Virus record (IMG/VR): IMGVR_UViG_2706794695_000003
Origin: a virus
Taxonomy: Duplodnaviria > Heunggongvirae > Uroviricota > Caudoviricetes
DNA: 9,386 nucleotides
Strand: one strand, 5' to 3'
Positions 1-9,386 of the stretch are shown here, piece by piece (position 1 is the first letter of the stretch; each line of letters starts with the position of its first letter). A model generated the notes under the pieces. The model searched no databases. It was given only the letters and a program-made list of their open reading frames with translations, and was not told the DNA's origin. The translations under genes and the position numbers were made by a program.

Positions 1-20
1 AGAGCCTGTCCAATGTGCAT
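1..20 (-). CDS. Possible 5' end of the next head-module gene (partial, runs off the window)
   Basis: ATG at 20..18 on the minus strand directly after the T-run of the hairpin at 27..54; frame stays open to the window edge. Only 6 codons are visible and there is no clear Shine-Dalgarno, so identity and reality are unknown. Confidence 0.2.
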
Positions 21-54
21 AAAAAAATCCGGAAACAAGTGAGCGTTTCCGGAT
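21..54 (-). terminator. Intrinsic-terminator-like hairpin downstream of the portal gene
   Basis: Perfect 10-bp stem (27..36 atccggaaac pairs with 45..54 gtttccggat) with an 8-nt loop; on the minus strand it is followed by a run of 7 T (forward 21..27 is A-rich). Lies about 35 nt after the portal stop at 88..90. Confidence 0.5.
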
Positions 55-87
55 TCTTACACAGCCACTGGATCGGTCAACTGATCC

Positions 88-1335
88 TTAACTGATCGGC
101 ATTACACCACCGGGACGCGGATTCATATCTTCCAGGTCGCGGCAGTCATTGGAAGAGTAAATTCCCCAGTTGATCCCGGTGGCGTAGGCTTCAAAACGGG
201 ACTTCATATCCCCGCGCAGTAACGCCCCGGCGTTAAATTTGGCGTAATAAACGCCCTGCTTACTTTTTCGTACCAGTCCGGTGTTGATCCGCTGTTCGAT
301 GCGGGTCAGATACGGCACCAGTGAATAGTTGATAAATCCCAGCCCCAGCTCTTCGATATTGTTGAAGGTGGCGCGATCGGTGTTCTGCACCATGTGCAAC
401 GGCACCCGGAACAGACGACAGATTTCTTCCAGCTGAAACTTGCGGGTTTCCAGGAACTGACTGTCCTCGGCGTTCAGCGCCATCGACTTCCAGTCCAGCC
501 CCATTTCCAGAATCATCGGGCGGTGAGCATTGCCAAGCCCCGTGTGACACTCCTCAAAATCTTTCTTCAGACGCTCGTAAGCATCCGGCGTGAGCTTTTG
601 TTCCGTACGCAACACACCGGATGTCACCGCACCATTACTAAACAACCTGGCACCGTGCTCCTCGGTTGCCGCTGCCAGTGAAATGGCCTCACGCGCATAC
701 GCAATGGGATTCAGCCCGACAAGTCCATCCAGCGTCAGGGTGCGCACATGCCAGATTTCATTCTGGGTCAACACATCCACGGAACCATCCGGAAACGTCA
801 CCTGATAAACCGGCTGCCACTGGCTGTTCAGCTTCGGTTCCACACAGCCCGGATCTATCGGAAGAAGCTCCACCACTTCTCCCAGTGCCTTTACCTTGTA
901 GGCGTAAAAATTCCCCCGTAGACACAGGCAGACAATAACCAGCTCCCAGAATTCCTGCGGTGTCATGTAGCCATTAGGTTTTGCCGAAACCAACTTATGC
1001 AGTCGTTCATCCACCGCCCGTGTTTTCAGGGTACCGCTGATTTTGTAGAGACTGCAGGGCAGCATACCAACAGACTCTGCCAGCACCCTGACGCAAGAAT
1101 AGACCGCCGTCAGGCGCATGGCCCGCTGGCTACTGATCCGCTTTCCGGTATAGGTGTCGTATGACAGCCCGATAGCATCAGCAGTTCTGCTGGCGTGGTC
1201 ACCGGCACATCGCTTTTTCGTTGAAATAATCCCGAAAAGAACACTATTTACCTCCGCCGACAGACTGCCGTGTACGGTCGAGATATCGCGCCACCAGCCA
1301 CGACCAGAACAGGCACAGCGCCCCGGCAACAACAA
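88..1335 (-). CDS. Phage portal protein (HK97-family type); true start uncertain
   Basis: 415-codon ORF with a portal-like core (…[28 protein letters not shown]…) sitting immediately after the terminase large subunit and a small ORF. The track start at 1335 is TTG and overlaps the upstream small ORF by 92 nt; the only in-frame ATG is at 1119..1117 with no Shine-Dalgarno. Stop TAA at 90..88. Confidence 0.8.
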
Positions 1336-1426
1336 AACCCGCCGGGGGATAAATCAGCCAGGCACCATACGCCAGCAAAAGCGCACCCAGCACGCCCACC
1401 AGAGGCGCGAGAATCAGCATGATCAT
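1244..1426 (-). CDS. Small membrane protein, two predicted transmembrane helices (possibly the DUF1056-like ORF often found between terminase and portal)
   Basis: 60-aa ORF, ATG at 1426..1424 preceded by GAGGT 7 nt upstream; two hydrophobic stretches ([21 protein letters not shown] and [17 protein letters not shown]). Starts 11 nt after the terminase-large stop. Family assignment is from memory. Confidence 0.55.
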
Positions 1427-1437
1427 AATTACCTCAG

Positions 1438-3171
1438 TTAAAGCGAGCGGATCCCGTAGGACTCAATGTGGTCAGACAGCGTGTCTTCTTTCTCGTACAG
1501 CATGGCTCTGCCAACCGCCATAATCAGCGCAACTGCACCATCGATTTTGTTTTCCGCCTGCTCTTTGACGGGTTTCACCACATCATCGTTACCCGGCATG
1601 TTTTTGCCGACCACGTTGCCGATACACCAGGTCATGATGGGATTGCCGTCATGATGAAAACGTCCCGATTCAATCGCTGCTTCCAGCTCTTTCATCGGAT
1701 CGGACATATTGGTGAAGTTCTGGACGATAGTGACGGGATTCAGGTCTTCATCAGCAAGGTCATGTGACAACCCGGTCGCCCCGAAGGGGTCGATGGGTGA
1801 CTCACTGACCGGGCTGATTTTGTTCGCCGCTTTGGCCTCCTCGAGGATGTAGCGATAATCCACCTCCGCACCATCGGTAACGGTCAGAACGCCCATTTCC
1901 ACCCATTTCTGAAAGCGTTCGGCTGTCCGTCGATCTTCATTTTTCTCGACGCTGTACACCGTGTCATACGGTACCCAGAAACGCGGGGCCACACTGTAGT
2001 AATGCGTTTTACCGTCAATCTCGCGGGTATAAAGTCGCGCCATGCTGTTCATATCCAGCTTACGCGCCAGGTCAAAGGCCAGAATGCACGGCTGCCCCTC
2101 GAACTGCTCAAGGGTCAGTGATTTATCCTCGCAGCTCTGCCAGCTCACCAAGTTGAAATACGCCGAACGCGCCGACACCCAGATATTGAGGTGTTTTGTT
2201 TTAAAGACGTTTGCCAGACGGGCGTTATTTTTCGCACGCTGCTGCTGACTTAACAAAAATTCGCGATAAACCGACACGCCAATATTTGGATTGGCTTTTT
2301 CCAGCACCTGCGGGCCGGTCCAGTCGTCACCTTCATCAACGGTATAGATGATCCCGAACAGTTCATCGTTAGGCACCGAGCCGTTGAGCATCTCGATGAC
2401 TTCCCGCCGCTTGTCGTAGCACGGCCCCTCAATGTTGTACCCGGCGGTGGTGATGGCCCACATCAGTGGCTGACGTCGCGCCCCCATCCCGGTAAGCATT
2501 GTGGTATAAAGCGCATCGGTGGCATGCTCGTGATATTCATCAACCACGGCACAGTGGGGTGATGAACCATCACCTGGGTTGCCGATCAGCGGTTCAAACC
2601 GCGCGCCATCCTCCGGACGGTTCATGTTTGAGGCGTTAACCTCAATCCCGAACGCTTCCGTCAGCATGGGTGTGCGTTTACACATCAGTCGCGCCGGGCG
2701 AAAGACTTCCCACGCCTGTTTCTCTGTCGTGGCACCGGAATACACTTCCGCGCCAAACTCGTTATCACAGGCAAAACAATACAGGGCAACACCGGCAGAG
2801 ATTGCTGATTTGCCGTTCTTACGGGGGATTTCGGTGTACACCTCCCGGAAGCGGCGCAACCGGGTGCCTTTATTGACCCAGCCAAACGCACAGCAGATCA
2901 CAAATAGCTGCCACGGCTCCAGCGTGATGGGCATCCGTTTGAATGCCCACTCCCCCTTGGTGTGCGGCAACAGCTGAATAAATTTCGCGGCCCGTTCAGC
3001 CAGGTCCTTGTCGAAGCGGTAACGAAACGACTTACTTTTTTCCGCCATCAGGTCATCAAGATGGCGCTGGCAGGCCTGAATCACAAACTGGCAGGCAACA
3101 ATCTTTCCGCGCACGACATCCCGGGCATACTGATTTGCAGCATTTACGTTGGGGTAAGATTTCCGGCTCAT
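1438..3171 (-). CDS. terL: Terminase large subunit
   Basis: 577-aa ORF with a Walker-A-like motif (EIPRKNGKS) and a nuclease-like C-terminal half; ATG at 3171..3169 overlaps the stop of the upstream small-subunit gene (ATGA). Gene order HNH, terS, terL, portal is typical of HK97-like packaging modules. Confidence 0.92.
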
Positions 3172-3662
3172 GATTCGATAATTTTCAGAAACGGGTTAGT
3201 GGCTTTCTTCTGCCCCGCCAGGCCAATCAGACGCTGGCGGCTGCTGGGGTCGAGTCCGAGCATTGCCCCCGTGCTGCTCATCTCGGACTCCTGTTCTTTT
3301 TTGGCGGTCAGCTCCGGATTTTTGACCCTGCCGCCCATTGCACCGGTGATGGTGTTGCCCTGTATGGCAATATTTTTCACGGCACGTCGCCAGAACTCAT
3401 AGGCCACGCACCACCGCTCAAGTACCGCCAGGTCAGTCACGCACAGCAGGCCCTGACCGCAGAGTTCTTTGGTTGTCAGTTGCCACATGATCGTGGCGAG
3501 AGGGAGATCTTCTTCAGCGAACCACTCTGGTGGCTCAACACCTTTGATGGGCGTAAAAACAGGTTCATCTTTGTTCAGGGCTCGCTTGCCGGGGTTTCCG
3601 GCCAGCGCCTTGCGCGCCGTTGGCTTGGGGCGACGCCCGGAACGCCCCGCCGTTCCAGCCAT
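3168..3662 (-). CDS. terS: Terminase small subunit (P27-family-like)
   Basis: Basic, Gly/Pro-rich N-terminus ([29 protein letters not shown]…) typical of P27-type small subunits. The track start at 3671 is a GTG inside the Shine-Dalgarno; the real start is taken as ATG 3662..3660, with AGGAG 8 nt upstream. Stop TGA 3170..3168 overlaps the terL ATG. Confidence 0.8.
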
Positions 3663-3704
3663 ATGCGGCACTCCTGGTTAAATTTCATTTTTCGCGGGTA
3701 TAAA

Positions 3705-3765
3705 AAAACGATGGGGCGGGCAGTCCGGAAGACGTCAGGTCACAGGGATTTGCCCCGCCCCTCCC
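3705..3765. other. GC-rich dyad between the HNH and terS genes; candidate cos site or terminator
   Basis: 8-bp G/C arms (3713..3720 ggggcggg, 3754..3761 cccgcccc) flank about 33 bp that contain GACGTC. On the minus strand the 3' arm is followed by ATCG and a run of 7 T. In HK97-like phages cos lies between the HNH gene and the small terminase gene. Confidence 0.3.
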
Positions 3766-3783
3766 TACAAGTGAGAATAATTA

Positions 3784-4134
3784 TCACCGGATTCGTTCGC
3801 GCGCTGTTTTCGCTTTATGGCAGGGCCAGCACAGACTCTGCAGGTTGCTGTCTGCGTCTGTTCCGCCATGCGCTTTCGGGATGATGTGGTCGACGGTTTT
3901 CGCCTCGCTCACCACACCGACACGCAGACACAACTGACACAGACCTTTATCGCGCTTCAGAATACGGGCACGAATCACCGTCCATTTTGAGCCATAGCCA
4001 CGCTGGTGGCGGCTCAGTCCGCGCTGGTGCTGCACCCAGCCTTCACCGCGATGTTTATCGCAGTAACCCGAACTGTCTGTGGTTGTACCTGCACATCCAC
4101 GCTTACGGCAGGCACGTGGGATTAGTGATGGCAT
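3784..4134 (-). CDS. Phage HNH endonuclease (terminase-associated)
   Basis: 116-aa ORF rich in Cys/His (…CDKHRGEGW…, …DHIIPKAHGG…NLQSLCWPCHKAKT…) with a zinc-binding HNH fold pattern; ATG 4134..4132 with GAGGT 4 nt upstream; directly upstream of terS as in HK97-like phages. Confidence 0.88.
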   Translation of the reverse strand: MPSLIPRACRKRGCAGTTTDSSGYCDKHRGEGWVQHQRGLSRHQRGYGSKWTVIRARILKRDKGLCQLCLRVGVVSEAKTVDHIIPKAHGGTDADSNLQSLCWPCHKAKTARERIR

Positions 4135-4176
4135 AAATACCTCATACCCTGCGAAATGTTTACCACGATAAAAAGG

Positions 4177-4425
4177 CTACTTAATGCACTGAGTGCGGAT
4201 ATACTCCTGTGCCCCTTCCAGTTGCATCTGCATCGTCATCAGCCGCTCTCTGAGGGTGAAATAATCCCGTTCAGCGGTGTCTGCCAGTCGGGGGCTGGTT
4301 GCATTATCCACGCCGGAGGCGGTGGTGGCTTCACGCACTGACTGACAGACTGCTTTGATGTGCAACCGACGACGACCAGCGGCAACATCAGCGCGCAGAG
4401 TTTCATTTTCAGCTTTCGCATCAGC
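4177..4425 (-). CDS. Rz: i-spanin Rz, C-terminal 82 codons (5' part lost in the N-masked gap)
   Basis: Visible translation ADAKAENETLRADVAAGRRRLHIKAVCQSVREATTASGVDNATSPRLADTAERDYFTLRERL… closely matches my recollection of the lambda Rz C-terminal half. The upstream end runs into the N-run at 4426. Confidence 0.85.
   Translation of the reverse strand, partial: ADAKAENETLRADVAAGRRRLHIKAVCQSVREATTASGVDNATSPRLADTAERDYFTLRERLMTMQMQLEGAQEYIRTQCIK
4239..4421 (-). CDS. Rz1: o-spanin Rz1 lipoprotein, embedded in the +1 frame of Rz
   Basis: 60-aa ORF MRKLKMKLCALMLPLVVVGCTSKQ…PPPPP… with a lipobox (VVGC) and a proline run; ATG at 4421..4419 lies just outside the N-run; wholly inside Rz in another frame, as in lambda. 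Confidence 0.8.
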   Translation of the reverse strand: MRKLKMKLCALMLPLVVVGCTSKQSVSQCVKPPPPPAWIMQPAPDWQTPLNGIISPSESG

Positions 4426-4700
4426 NNNNNNNNNNNNNNNNNNNNNNNNNNNNNNNNNNNNNNNNNNNNNNNNNNNNNNNNNNNNNNNNNNNNNNNNNNN
4501 NNNNNNNNNNNNNNNNNNNNNNNNNNNNNNNNNNNNNNNNNNNNNNNNNNNNNNNNNNNNNNNNNNNNNNNNNNNNNNNNNNNNNNNNNNNNNNNNNNNN
4601 NNNNNNNNNNNNNNNNNNNNNNNNNNNNNNNNNNNNNNNNNNNNNNNNNNNNNNNNNNNNNNNNNNNNNNNNNNNNNNNNNNNNNNNNNNNNNNNNNNNN
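4426..4700. other. N-masked gap (275 N)
   Basis: Run of n. Hides the body and 3' end of the endolysin gene and the 5' part of Rz. Confidence 1.
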
Positions 4701-4790
4701 ACCACCTGGGCCAGTGATTAACACAGATGCTATAGCAACAGCCCCACCACCAATAGCAGCTGCAACAGCCTTGCGTAATGATGGCGACAT
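4701..4790 (-). CDS. SAR endolysin (phage-21 R-type lysozyme), N-terminal 30 codons only; remainder masked
   Basis: ATG 4790..4788 overlaps the holin stop (TAATG). [30 protein letters not shown] is a Gly/Ala-rich weakly hydrophobic signal-anchor-release segment, matching my recollection of the phage 21 R N-terminus. Confidence 0.7.
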
Positions 4791-4963
4791 TATTCACCTC
4801 TCGCAGCCTTACGCTTGTCTTCTCTTATTTTGAAATACAGATTTGTCAGATAAGTCAGAAGCCCCAGAAGCAGACTTCCCAGCACACCAATCGCAGCCCA
4901 CTGTGATGGACTGACCTGATCCAACCACTGCAAAAACCAGTAGCCGGCACTGCCGGCGGAGGT
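4790..4963 (-). CDS. Pinholin (phage-21 S-type holin), C-terminal 57 codons; N-terminus masked
   Basis: Visible translation [57 protein letters not shown] has two transmembrane segments and a charged tail, matching my recollection of phage 21 S (about 68-71 aa); stop TAA 4792..4790. Confidence 0.8.
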
Positions 4964-5192
4964 NNNNNNNNNNNNNNNNNNNNNNNNNNNNNNNNNNNNN
5001 NNNNNNNNNNNNNNNNNNNNNNNNNNNNNNNNNNNNNNNNNNNNNNNNNNNNNNNNNNNNNNNNNNNNNNNNNNNNNNNNNNNNNNNNNNNNNNNNNNNN
5101 NNNNNNNNNNNNNNNNNNNNNNNNNNNNNNNNNNNNNNNNNNNNNNNNNNNNNNNNNNNNNNNNNNNNNNNNNNNNNNNNNNNNNNNNNNNN
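4964..5192. other. N-masked gap (229 N)
   Basis: Run of n. Hides the holin start and whatever lies between the tRNA cluster and the holin. Confidence 1.
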
Positions 5193-5255
5193 GAGTCAGA
5201 CATTCCCACACAATATTGTGTCAGTGCAAATAACAACCTTCGTCTCAAATCTCGC

Positions 5256-5330
<75 letters not shown>

Positions 5331-5333
5331 ATA

Positions 5334-5409
<76 letters not shown>

Positions 5410-5411
5410 GC

Positions 5412-5488
5412 TGGCCCACCACCGAGGACTCGAACCTCGCACCGTCAACTTAGAAGGTTGATGCTCTATCCGGATGAGCTAGTGGTGG
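5412..5488 (-). tRNA. tRNA-Arg (anticodon UCU)
   Basis: 77-nt cloverleaf: acceptor CCACCAC/GTGGTGG (unusual C1-G72), D-stem GCTC/GAGC, anticodon stem TCAAC/GTTGA, loop CTTCTAA, T-arm CGAGG-TTCGAGT-CCTCG, CCA encoded. Confidence 0.75.
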
Positions 5489-5489
5489 T

Positions 5490-5566
5490 TGGTGGCCCTT
5501 GCTGGACTTGAACCAGCGACCTGGCGATTATGAGTCGCTCGCTCTGACCAACTGAGCTAAAGGGCC
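5490..5566 (-). tRNA. tRNA with anticodon CAU; likely Ile2 (lysidine, ileX/ileZ-like) rather than Met
   Basis: 77-nt cloverleaf: acceptor GGCCCTT/AAGGGCC, D-arm GCTC-AGTTGGTCA-GAGC, anticodon loop CTCATAA, T-arm GCTGG-TTCAAGT-CCAGC, CCA encoded. Overall close to my recollection of E. coli ileX. Confidence 0.75.
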
Positions 5567-5575
5567 GGAGGCAGA

Positions 5576-5604
5576 ATAATAACCATATGTCATCACATCT
5601 GCAA
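5576..5604 (-). promoter_or_regulatory. Candidate sigma70 promoter for the tRNA cluster
   Basis: Minus strand: -35 TTGCAG (5604..5599), 17-nt spacer, -10 TATTAT (5581..5576), ending 9 nt before the first tRNA 5' end at 5566. Match by eye only. Confidence 0.3.
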
Positions 5605-5652
5605 ACTCATCTGACCACCAGCACGTTTAACGTCCTGTGCCGTTTTTCAGGT

Positions 5653-5680
5653 ATAAAAAAACCCGCTCATCGGCGGGTTT
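5653..5680 (-). terminator. Rho-independent terminator downstream of the ORF6N-domain gene
   Basis: Minus strand: stem ACCCGC/GCGGGT (forward 5661..5678) with a 6-nt loop, followed by 8 T (forward A-run 5653..5660). Confidence 0.6.
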
Positions 5681-5755
5681 AAGCTGTGTGGCGTAGTAAC
5701 CACTCTTAACAGGATATTCAACTTTTTACGATCGTAAAGTTTTCGGAAAAAATTT

Positions 5756-6319
5756 TTAAAACCGCATCAACCGCTCCACCAGTTGCTCTTTACGGGCAAC
5801 GATCCACCCGTGTTGCTCCAGATAAAATTTAAACCGTTCCAGAGTACATACCATCGCATCGGCGGGTACCTTTTCCGTGAACTCAACCTGACCGTGTTTA
5901 TCGAAGTGGCTCAGTAATGCGCATCCATCATTTTCGATAGATGTGTTTTGTGCCGCTGGTGGCTGTTTCTGGTTGAAATAACAGTCTTCCAGTTTTTCGA
6001 ACACTTCCCACGCCTGATCGGTTTCGAGCATTTTGGCGTGACGGGCTGCGCCACGTTCTGTCCAGAGGATGAGGGAGCGAACGTTACGGGCAATTTTCAC
6101 AGAAACTCTTAAAGAGTTTTCGTTCTTCAACTCTCGTAACGCATCACCTTCTATCAGGAAAAAATGTTTACCTTCTATAAACCGTTCTTTGTTTCGATTG
6201 AAATTGTTTGTCAAACGCTGGCGCTCTGTTCCGTACAAATCAGCCAGCAGCTCTGTTGTCATGACAGGAAGATGGTTATGCGTAAGTGACGGGAGTTTTT
6301 CAATAGACGTGCGATTCAT
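5756..6319 (-). CDS. ORF6N-domain protein (antirepressor-like DNA-binding N-terminus, C-terminal domain of unknown function); accessory cargo gene
   Basis: ORF open from 6517 (GTG) to stop TAA 5758..5756. Preferred start is ATG 6319..6317, with AAGGA 7 nt upstream, giving 187 aa. The N-terminus (…LPVMTTELLADLYGTERQRLTNNFNRNKERFIEGKHFFLIEGDALRELK…) fits the ORF6N pattern as I recall it; the C-terminal ~100 aa is unrecognised. Confidence 0.7.
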   Translation of the reverse strand: MNRTSIEKLPSLTHNHLPVMTTELLADLYGTERQRLTNNFNRNKERFIEGKHFFLIEGDALRELKNENSLRVSVKIARNVRSLILWTERGAARHAKMLETDQAWEVFEKLEDCYFNQKQPPAAQNTSIENDGCALLSHFDKHGQVEFTEKVPADAMVCTLERFKFYLEQHGWIVARKEQLVERLMRF

Positions 6320-6525
6320 AGACATGTCCTTTCGAATATTTTGATTTACCCCTTTTGAGAGGGTGACCGGGCGCTCAAAACCGTCGAAAGTCGGCGGGCG
6401 TATTTCCATTGCTGGTATTGTATTAGCCGCACACCCGGTCATAAACCAAGAATTCTGGACACAAAAAAACCACATGGCTATCGGGTGTGGATACCGCTTT
6501 CGAGGTGTTTTGAGCACCGCGGGGA

Positions 6526-6554
6526 AATGTAAACTGCAAACCTGAAACTGTCAA
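6526..6554 (-). promoter_or_regulatory. Candidate sigma70 promoter upstream of the ORF6N-domain gene
   Basis: Minus strand: perfect -35 TTGACA (6554..6549), 17-nt spacer, -10 TACATT (6531..6526). The -35 lies inside the 7-bp inverted repeat AACCTGA-N14-TCAGGTT (forward 6539..6566). Confidence 0.35.
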
Positions 6555-6679
6555 CACCGTCAGGTTCCAATCATCGGGTGGTGAGACGCACAGGGTTGGA
6601 ACTACCGGGAAACCGACCGGCGAGCTTTTCAGCTCCCCCATGCGCCCCACCATAATTCAGATGTGCGCGTGCATACGAC

Positions 6680-6704
6680 AATAAAAAACACGCTCGCGGC
6701 GTGT
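6680..6704 (-). terminator. tR'-like intrinsic terminator ending a short pR' leader RNA
   Basis: Minus strand: stem ACACGC/GCGTGT (forward 6688..6704) with a 5-nt loop, followed by TTTTTTATT; about 75-80 nt downstream of the predicted pR' start. Confidence 0.6.
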
Positions 6705-6765
6705 GTCTGTCGCGGTCTCTATCCGGGGTTCCAATCCCGACGCCAGATTTTGCTGGCGCGTGAGG

Positions 6766-6795
6766 AATATAGCCCCGGACAATGTGTCTGGTCAA
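6766..6795 (-). promoter_or_regulatory. pR'-like late promoter immediately downstream of Q
   Basis: Minus strand: -35 TTGACC (6795..6790), 18-nt spacer, -10 TATATT (6771..6766), starting 5 nt after the Q stop. The early transcript carries hairpins GCGCCAG-N6-CTGGCG and CGGG-N8-CCCG before the terminator, so the qut region would be here. Confidence 0.55.
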
Positions 6796-6799
6796 GCAC

Positions 6800-7186
6800 C
6801 TACATAATTCGTTCTACGTATCTGTCCATCTCCAGCCGGATATCAAGCATCATCAACATGCCATCAATAACCCCTTCCGCTTTCTGCAGGCGCTTGCCAA
6901 TACAGGTATCCGAACACCCATGTTTCCGTGCCAGACTCATAAAAGTCATTCCACCTACGTAATAATCCACCAGCAAATCGTGCAAATCCTGATTTTTCTT
7001 GTTCAACCGGGCCATACAGCCACAAATTATCATTGCATCATCATCAGAACACTGAGGGCGTGATTTCACTTTCGACGGAATTAACCCTTTAAAACCAGCA
7101 GCGATCGACGCCCAGGATACATCTTCATGAGTGTTTGCAGCCCAAGCCCCCCACCGTTCCATAACCTGCTGAATATCACGCGCCAT
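6800..7186 (-). CDS. Q: Late-gene antiterminator Q (short QuuD/phage-21-like type, not lambda-Q type)
   Basis: [61 protein letters not shown]…[23 protein letters not shown]… matches my recollection of the about 127-aa QuuD/Q21-family proteins. Start taken as ATG 7186..7184 with AGGTGA 5 nt upstream (the track ORF extends to 7207); stop TAG 6802..6800; followed by pR'. Confidence 0.85.
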
Positions 7187-7547
7187 CGTTATCACCTGTG
7201 ATTTCATAAATCTTCACGCCCAGTCGCCCACCAGGAACGAGCTGACCGCGCACAATATTGATTTCATCAAACTGCTCGTCGTCTATGAGTAGTCCGGCAT
7301 GCGTCAGCGCATCCAGTGGTGCTTTCAGGATATTGTCCAGGTCACGACGGCGCTTATCCGGTGGCTCTGCAATAATCTTTATCGCCAGCCTTCCGGACAG
7401 GTTTAATTTCAGCCGCTGCTGGCGAACAATTAGCGTCACATCACGGCGATAACGCTCACCAACTTTTGATACAAAATATGTGCTGCCACGACGTCGCCAG
7501 TAAGTATTCACCGTCGGCGGATAAGGTAAAATAAACTCATGGCGCAT
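7176..7547 (-). CDS. rusA: Holliday junction resolvase RusA
   Basis: 123-aa ORF with RusA-like sequence (…[12 protein letters not shown]…, …[27 protein letters not shown]…); ATG 7547..7545 overlaps the upstream stop (TGATG); sits in the nin-region position just before Q. Confidence 0.88.
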
Positions 7548-7804
7548 CAGCGCAGCACCTCCTGCACCATTTTTTCAAACTTTCCAACTTTGGTTTCCAG
7601 CTCTGCCACACAATCAACGAGCTCATCCACCGCTTTTTGTGCGCGATGTTTCGCCTGCATCAGTTCCCTGAGCGCTGGCACCATATCCCGACGAATGGCA
7701 TCTTTTGTTACACCTGTTTTTTCCAGTTGTTCCGCCTGTCGCAACATTTCCTGCGCGTGTTTACGCAATTGTTCAGAGGTAAAAGTCATTGTCTGGTTGT
7801 TCAA
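7547..7804 (-). CDS. Small charged, probably coiled-coil, hypothetical protein in the nin-like region
   Basis: 85-codon ORF. TTG at 7804..7802 overlaps the helicase stop and has GGAG 8 nt upstream; the alternative ATG at 7789..7787 gives 80 aa. Sequence is rich in E/K/R/Q/A. No family recognised. Confidence 0.5.
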   Translation of the reverse strand: MNNQTMTFTSEQLRKHAQEMLRQAEQLEKTGVTKDAIRRDMVPALRELMQAKHRAQKAVDELVDCVAELETKVGKFEKMVQEVLR

Positions 7805-9192
7805 AAGAAACGCTCCATCTTACTGCTGTCGGTACGTGTATTGCTGTATCTGCGCGGCTGGGGCTGCCGCATTGGGGTGGAAAGAACCTGTGCGCTTTCC
7901 TGGTCCACAGGCAGAAAATGTCCGTTATAAAAACGCCGGTAAATCGTCCCCAGAGAACCGTTACGTTGTTTCGTGATATTAATTTCTGCTATGCCTGTAG
8001 CCTGTGTATCCGGGTTGTACACTTCATCCCTGTAAAGCATCAGAATGATGTCTGCATCCGCCTCTATTTCTCCGGAATTTTTCAGGTCTGAGTTCATGGG
8101 ACGTTTATTGGGTCTGGACTCCACACCGCGGGAGAGCTGGCTCAGCGCAATCAACGGAAAACCACCGGATTTTGCCAGGCCTTTAAGCCCCTTTGAGATT
8201 TCACCCACGGCAAGGTCATGACGCCCCGTGGTTCGGGTTTTTATCAGCCCGAGATAATCAACCACCACCAGCGCCGTTTCCGGATGTTTAATCAGATGGT
8301 GTTTCGTTGTTGCGCATATCTCATCAATGGTCAGGTTCGCCTGGTCCACCATCCAGATATTGCGCCCGGTCATCCGCCCCACCCCTTGTGAGAAACGCGC
8401 CCAGTCTTCATCTTCAAAGTGAGCCACAGATTTCAGGCGTGATACTGGCATCCCTCCAGCCGCAGACACCATACGTTCACCAATCTGGATGTTCGCCATC
8501 TCCATGGTGAACAGAAGCACACCATGCCCCTGCTCAGTCACCTTGTCGATGATGTCCAGCGCAAGTTCGGTTTTCCCCATCGAAGGACGGGCGGCAATGA
8601 ATACCAGGTCTCCGGGCTCCATACCGCCTGTTTTTGCGTCCAGTTCATCAATACCGGTCATCAACGTCCTGGATTTCTCCAGCCCCTGATTCCGGCATTC
8701 AACACGCTCAACCACTTCCGGAAGCACATCATCAATATGTACCGGCTGAATGACGCCCTTTCCTGTCGACAGTGTGACCATCATGTTCTGCGCATCCTTC
8801 AGGGCATCTTCAGCTGCTTCACAGGTATGCGCATCACGTAATTTCTGCAGCGCCTCATTCAGTGTTTTTTCTGCATCGCGCAGTGCGGCATTGCGCCGCA
8901 ACGCTGCAACATAGTGCTCCAGTGAAGACTTCACCCAGGTTTTACGCCCGGTATCAGTAATCACCGGGGCAAGTTCCGGCATCTCATTACACAACAGCAC
9001 GGGGTCAATCACTCCTGAAACACGGGCCTGTCTGCAGATGCCTGTGTAGATATCCCGATACGCTCGTACAGAAAAAATGTCCGCCGGTAGTGTGATCAGA
9101 ATATCCATCACTTCATGATCTGCCCCACGCAGAAAGAATGCGCCAATGACAGCGCCTTCCAGGTCATCATTACGCCAGACTGGTGTTGTCAT
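7801..9192 (-). CDS. Replicative DNA helicase, DnaB family (phage-encoded)
   Basis: ATG 9192..9190 with GAGGT 8 nt upstream, giving 463 aa (the track ORF extends to 9333 through an unlikely N-terminal extension). Walker A ARPSMGKTELALDI, DnaB-like N-domain and RecA-like C-domain motifs; stop TGA 7803..7801. Confidence 0.9.
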   Translation of the reverse strand: MTTPVWRNDDLEGAVIGAFFLRGADHEVMDILITLPADIFSVRAYRDIYTGICRQARVSGVIDPVLLCNEMPELAPVITDTGRKTWVKSSLEHYVAALRRNAALRDAEKTLNEALQKLRDAHTCEAAEDALKDAQNMMVTLSTGKGVIQPVHIDDVLPEVVERVECRNQGLEKSRTLMTGIDELDAKTGGMEPGDLVFIAARPSMGKTELALDIIDKVTEQGHGVLLFTMEMANIQIGERMVSAAGGMPVSRLKSVAHFEDEDWARFSQGVGRMTGRNIWMVDQANLTIDEICATTKHHLIKHPETALVVVDYLGLIKTRTTGRHDLAVGEISKGLKGLAKSGGFPLIALSQLSRGVESRPNKRPMNSDLKNSGEIEADADIILMLYRDEVYNPDTQATGIAEINITKQRNGSLGTIYRRFYNGHFLPVDQESAQVLSTPMRQPQPRRYSNTRTDSSKMERFF

Positions 9193-9386
9193 GCAGCCAC
9201 ACCTCTGATACAAGAACGGTAGCTGGGCCAGTTGAACGACAACCAGTTGCGCCCCCCGTCTGTGATCCTGTCGGCAATGCGGGGGCTGATGAACGCTGGA
9301 TTTGCCCCTATATTTCCAGACACCTGTTATCACTTAACCCATTACTGGCTTGCTGCCGTAGATATTCCCGTGGCGAGCGATAACCC

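Follow-up and report, generated by a model that had tools for sequence, protein, structure and literature searches.

The window analysed here, a stretch of DNA of 9,386 nt, is interrupted in the middle of a lysis cassette by a run of 275 Ns at positions 4426–4700 (N-run 1, gap 1; no strand), and the question that this locus raises is whether the length of that run says anything about the sequence hidden beneath it. From the letters alone, the initial annotation had argued that it does not, on the grounds that the missing parts of a phage-21-type endolysin of about 165 aa and an Rz of about 150 aa would need roughly 600 nt.

The visible flanks of gap 1 were read on the minus strand. On the right, the SAR endolysin (phage-21-type; ORF reading) starts with an ATG at 4790–4788, and 90 nt are readable down to 4701, so that 4701–4790 holds codons 1–30 and comprises the Gly/Ala-rich signal-anchor-release segment only. 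On the left, the last 82 codons and the stop of Rz, the inner-membrane spanin subunit, occupy 4177–4425, with the stop at 4177–4179 and 246 nt readable up to the edge of the gap (ORF reading and PF03245). The counts of 30 endolysin and 82 Rz codons given previously were accurate to the codon on the window letters. In a Pfam search the 82-aa Rz fragment aligned with model positions 45–125 of the 126-position PF03245 only, and the N-terminal part is therefore absent. The outer-membrane lipoprotein spanin subunit Rz1 (60 aa; 4239–4421, minus strand; PF06085), which is embedded in the +1 frame of Rz, is entirely readable in the window; it begins 5 nt away from gap 1 and is among the annotated genes of the source record (locus L031, 3543–3725). 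The span from the Rz stop to the endolysin ATG measures 614 nt in the window and 959 nt in relatives.

Relatives were identified through exact look-up of the 116-aa HNH endonuclease encoded just downstream of the lysis cassette (3784–4134, minus strand), an exact-match anchor that returned ten chromosomal loci. Exact 30-nt flanks from both sides of gap 1 were present in seven of the ten (L003, L005, L006, L008, L009, L010 and L012), and the three visible blocks of the window were collinear, and in the same order, with the related loci. Against the long visible blocks, six of the seven flank-matching loci (counted without L009) were free of substitutions and differed by one or two single-base indels at most. 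One of the seven, L008, is the complete genome CP022457.1, which Table 1 of PMC10924462 assigns to Shigella sonnei 2015C-3566.

In all seven loci the distance between window positions 4425 and 4701 was 620 nt, and the sequence was identical. The same 620 nt were found in the three IMG/VR contigs holding both flanks (L016, L019 and L020), giving an identical stretch in 10/10 flank-matching sequences. More distant Escherichia coli prophages, with flanks 88–98 % identical, shared this geometry; in one of them, L001, Rz is 465 nt and rrrD 498 nt long, and 620 nt again separate the aligned flanks. Since all ten flank-matching sequences hold 620 nt, N-run 1 does not measure the hidden stretch. Gap 1 hides 620 nt, a length that we infer for the isolate itself from its near-identical relatives. 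The need for about 600 nt had thus been estimated well from the visible codons, and the check proposed at the time, alignment of the flanks to related prophages to measure the true distance, returned the 620 nt directly and upheld the warning that the 275 Ns should not be read as a length.

The content of the hidden stretch was examined in a reconstruction of 10,161 nt, in which 620 and 659 nt were put back into the two N-runs of the window. The reconstruction yielded a 71-aa holin, a 165-aa endolysin, a 154-aa Rz and the 60-aa Rz1. The hidden 620 nt are accounted for by 135 endolysin codons plus stop (408 nt) and 72 Rz codons (216 nt), less a 4-nt overlap, in which the endolysin stop and the Rz start share the motif ATGA. 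Both the predicted product sizes and the predicted shortfall of about 135 and about 70 codons were therefore borne out, with endolysin residues 31–165, including the whole lysozyme domain, and the first 72 codons of Rz falling inside gap 1. In reconstruction coordinates Rz runs from 4177 to 4641, with Rz1 inside it at 4239–4421 in the +1 frame.

Each product of the reconstruction matched its Pfam family over the full length. The holin is of the S21-type class II (pinholin) and lies directly upstream of the endolysin, its stop overlapping the endolysin ATG; the last 57 codons and stop are readable at 4790–4963 (minus strand, ORF reading) and the first 14 codons lie in the second gap. The 71-aa product, combining 57 visible and 14 hidden residues, matched PF04971 (P21 holin S) with E=1.5e-35. 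The endolysin matched PF00959 (phage lysozyme) with E=2e-45, a domain seen only in the reconstruction; the reconstructed Rz covered PF03245 model positions 1–125 (E=3e-52) and Rz1 matched PF06085 (E=6e-20). Over all 165 residues the reconstructed endolysin was near-identical both to RrrD (PDB 4ZPU; E=2e-109, six differences in the alignment) and to the 165-aa lysozyme chain of PDB 3HDE (E=1e-108), which we take to be the SAR endolysin of phage 21. The catalytic triad of R21 is Glu35-Asp44-Thr50, and all three residues are present in the reconstructed endolysin, each within the hidden part.

In the reconstruction, the lysis region is a complete, ordinary pinholin/SAR endolysin/spanin cassette. 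It has the same gene order and overlaps as the phage 21 cassette (S21 pinholin, R21 SAR endolysin, Rz/Rz1) and the DLP12 copy of K-12 (essD-rrrD-rzpD/rzoD), and further resembles them in its PF04971 holin, in a 165-aa endolysin that aligns end to end and in an Rz1 embedded in Rz, with only a few amino-acid substitutions separating them. Unlike those two cassettes, that of the window is located in a prophage remnant with a P27-type terminase, where it is preceded by four tRNA genes and followed by the HNH endonuclease.

A second reading would take the gap lengths as right, with only 275 nt hidden under gap 1, a real 345-nt deletion across endolysin and Rz that leaves an endolysin stub, and a further 430-nt deletion under the second gap. 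Further losses are conceivable in a prophage that has already decayed and is flanked by IS elements, and the missing 345 nt are a multiple of 3, although this has a one-in-three chance of arising anyway. Two independent events would be required, each wholly inside an unassembled stretch, whereas the ten flank-matching sequences of the lineage are invariant over 620 nt. No flanks spaced 270–280 nt apart were found in species-representative genome contigs, a scan that shows only the absence of a 275-nt variant among genomes which also lack the left flank alone, as an exact 35-mer. We consider true gap lengths very improbable. The specific form of the event, an in-frame 345-nt loss leaving a SAR-anchor-only endolysin stub beside an intact Rz/Rz1, is just as hard to credit; if it were true, it would represent one more decay step of a domesticated prophage remnant.

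The origin of the N-runs was traced through exact-product look-up of the 57-aa holin fragment, which led to CWUT01000156.1 of the draft assembly GCA_001257135.1. This record, at 9386 nt, is the window itself, and its length already includes both N-runs. Its stretch 1790–7963 (locus L031) is base-for-base identical to the window, with both runs (275 and 229) included, and the genes stored for the record end at the edges of the runs. The runs join three contigs, at 1–4425, 4701–4963 (only 263 nt) and 5193–9386.

Before this record was found, a deliberate mask had been considered, that is, Ns introduced by the preparer of the window in a number that says nothing about how much was masked, as a few stretches of one sequence collection are described as N-masked. 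The NCBI-sourced copy of CWUT01000156.1 carries identical runs with gene calls ending at the run edges, and an exact look-up of the ORF read through N-run 1 (4239–4790) gave no match; both argue against a mask, which is left with only a slight chance of being correct. This origin was dropped once CWUT01000156.1 was shown to hold both runs: being present in the deposited draft record, the N-runs are scaffolder gaps and not a mask introduced for the present analysis.

Taken jointly, the best explanation, in which we have high confidence, is a draft-scaffold gap of underestimated size with 620 nt hiding ordinary parts of endolysin and Rz. The locus resembles the estimated-length scaffold gaps of short-read drafts in having non-standard N-runs (275 and 229) inside a deposited WGS record, contigs collinear with finished genomes, gaps in multi-copy prophage sequence and scaffold ends in IS elements. 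It differs from the usual gaps of this kind in the large size error, 275 versus 620 nt and 229 versus ~659 nt.

The second gap (N-run 2, 4964–5192; no strand) consists of 229 Ns and is the second scaffold gap in CWUT01000156.1. Relatives with matching flanks have 657–659 nt at this position, and the excess of 659 - 229 = 430 nt does not divide evenly by 3. Judging from these relatives, gap 2 hides the first 14 holin codons and ~615 nt upstream of them. The hidden stretch includes a 98-aa ORF, which had no Pfam hit on the record where it was called (L003).

For the first gap, counted on the window letters, 275 mod 3 = 2. The excess of 620 - 275 = 345 nt is 3 x 115, and as a multiple of 3 it happens to leave the codon phase across gap 1 intact. 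Endolysin and Rz1 are read in one and the same frame across N-run 1, which is why the ORF at 4239–4790 runs from the endolysin start through to the stop of Rz1. The ORF listing includes five X-filled ORFs that cross N-run 1, namely 4177–4797, 4239–4790, 4355–4717, 4360–4833 and 4421–4705. None of these drawn ORFs is real, since a stop codon and a start codon within the hidden sequence are passed over. The ORFs drawn through the N-runs are artefacts, as the initial annotation had held; its caution about carrying frames across gap 1 needs the qualification that the phase itself happens to be preserved (345 = 3 x 115).

The window is best explained as a short-read draft scaffold of an S. sonnei-type defective lambdoid prophage, and S. 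sonnei is very probably its source. In this reading a scaffolder joined the three contigs with N-runs of estimated length, both estimates being far too small. The break at the lysis cassette probably stems from the multi-copy nature of the prophage sequence. Of 5426 complete E. coli genomes, 5066 contain the 620 nt, with a median of 2 places per genome and as many as 8. The too-short lengths would reflect unreliable gap-size estimates with an anchoring contig as small as 263 nt, and both gaps are anchored on that same contig (4701–4963). According to the BESST paper (PMC4262078), estimates of gap size are more stable when the contigs on either side are large; for the proposition that scaffolders underestimate large gaps, the literature searched offered indirect support only.

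Contig ends in other assemblies show that the surroundings of gap 1 are a break-prone region. IMG/VR contigs end 111, 123, 125, 240 and 606 nt into gap 1, NCBI and Logan contigs of relatives start at window positions 4411–4427, and a 511-nt contig present in at least 20 samples begins exactly at 4963. With breaks spread over 4411–4427 and not at one base, there is only a suggestion that the gap edge falls on a repeat boundary.

A sharp repeat boundary at the edge of gap 1 was also considered. A look-up of the 82-aa Rz fragment returned 8 draft contigs whose first base lies no more than 2 nt from the edge. Control look-ups for neighbouring break codons returned 6 contigs for an 81-aa fragment and 4 for a 77-aa fragment. 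Counts of 6 and 4 versus 8 indicate diffuse breaks, and the sharp boundary was dropped.

One further locus, L011, belongs to a different prophage type with a 585-aa TerL and a 160-aa TerS. Inside gap 1, at reconstruction coordinates 4418–4782, its lysis cassette and that of the window type agree at all 365 nt, with one mismatch immediately on either side (4417 and 4783). The shared stretch would be a candidate collapsed repeat if a single genome contained both prophages.

The feature at 4426–4700 is an assembly artefact over already-known genes and adds nothing new biologically. It matters for data handling only: the N-run lengths in CWUT01000156.1 are unusable as distances, and ORFs are not readable across them. 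The apparent truncation of endolysin or Rz at gap 1 is no evidence of gene decay, and equal caution is due for gap 2. The biology that is hidden is that of a textbook phage-21-type lysis cassette, already available in finished genomes.

The wider prophage context was also recorded. In finished relatives the scaffold ends (1–90 and ~9307–9386) run into IS elements. At one end an IS4-family transposase lies beside a portal gene that is seemingly cut short at its C-terminus, and the portal homologue in L001 is annotated as missing its C-terminus. At the other end an IS3-family (HTH_Tnp_1/rve) ORF is located upstream of a DnaB-like helicase. The presence of IS elements at both ends indicates that the prophage is a remnant, lacking both head and tail genes, and that the contig ends are repeat breaks too.

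Four tandem tRNA genes were found at 5256–5566 on the minus strand, placed between the Q antiterminator/ORF6N gene and the lysis cassette. They were called as Gly-tcc, Thr-tgt, Arg-tct and a CAT anticodon assigned to Met; the RefSeq labels for the homologues in L001 are Gly, Thr, Lys and Ile.

The locus L004 (CP032523.1, S. sonnei AR-0030) has the same prophage backbone with a divergent Rz/endolysin segment and an Rz of 155 aa. Compared to the reconstruction it is 97 % identical over 2.5 kb, with mismatches clustered at reconstruction coordinates 4210–5106. On this alignment, L004 shows that the lysis cassette undergoes mosaic exchange within S. sonnei.
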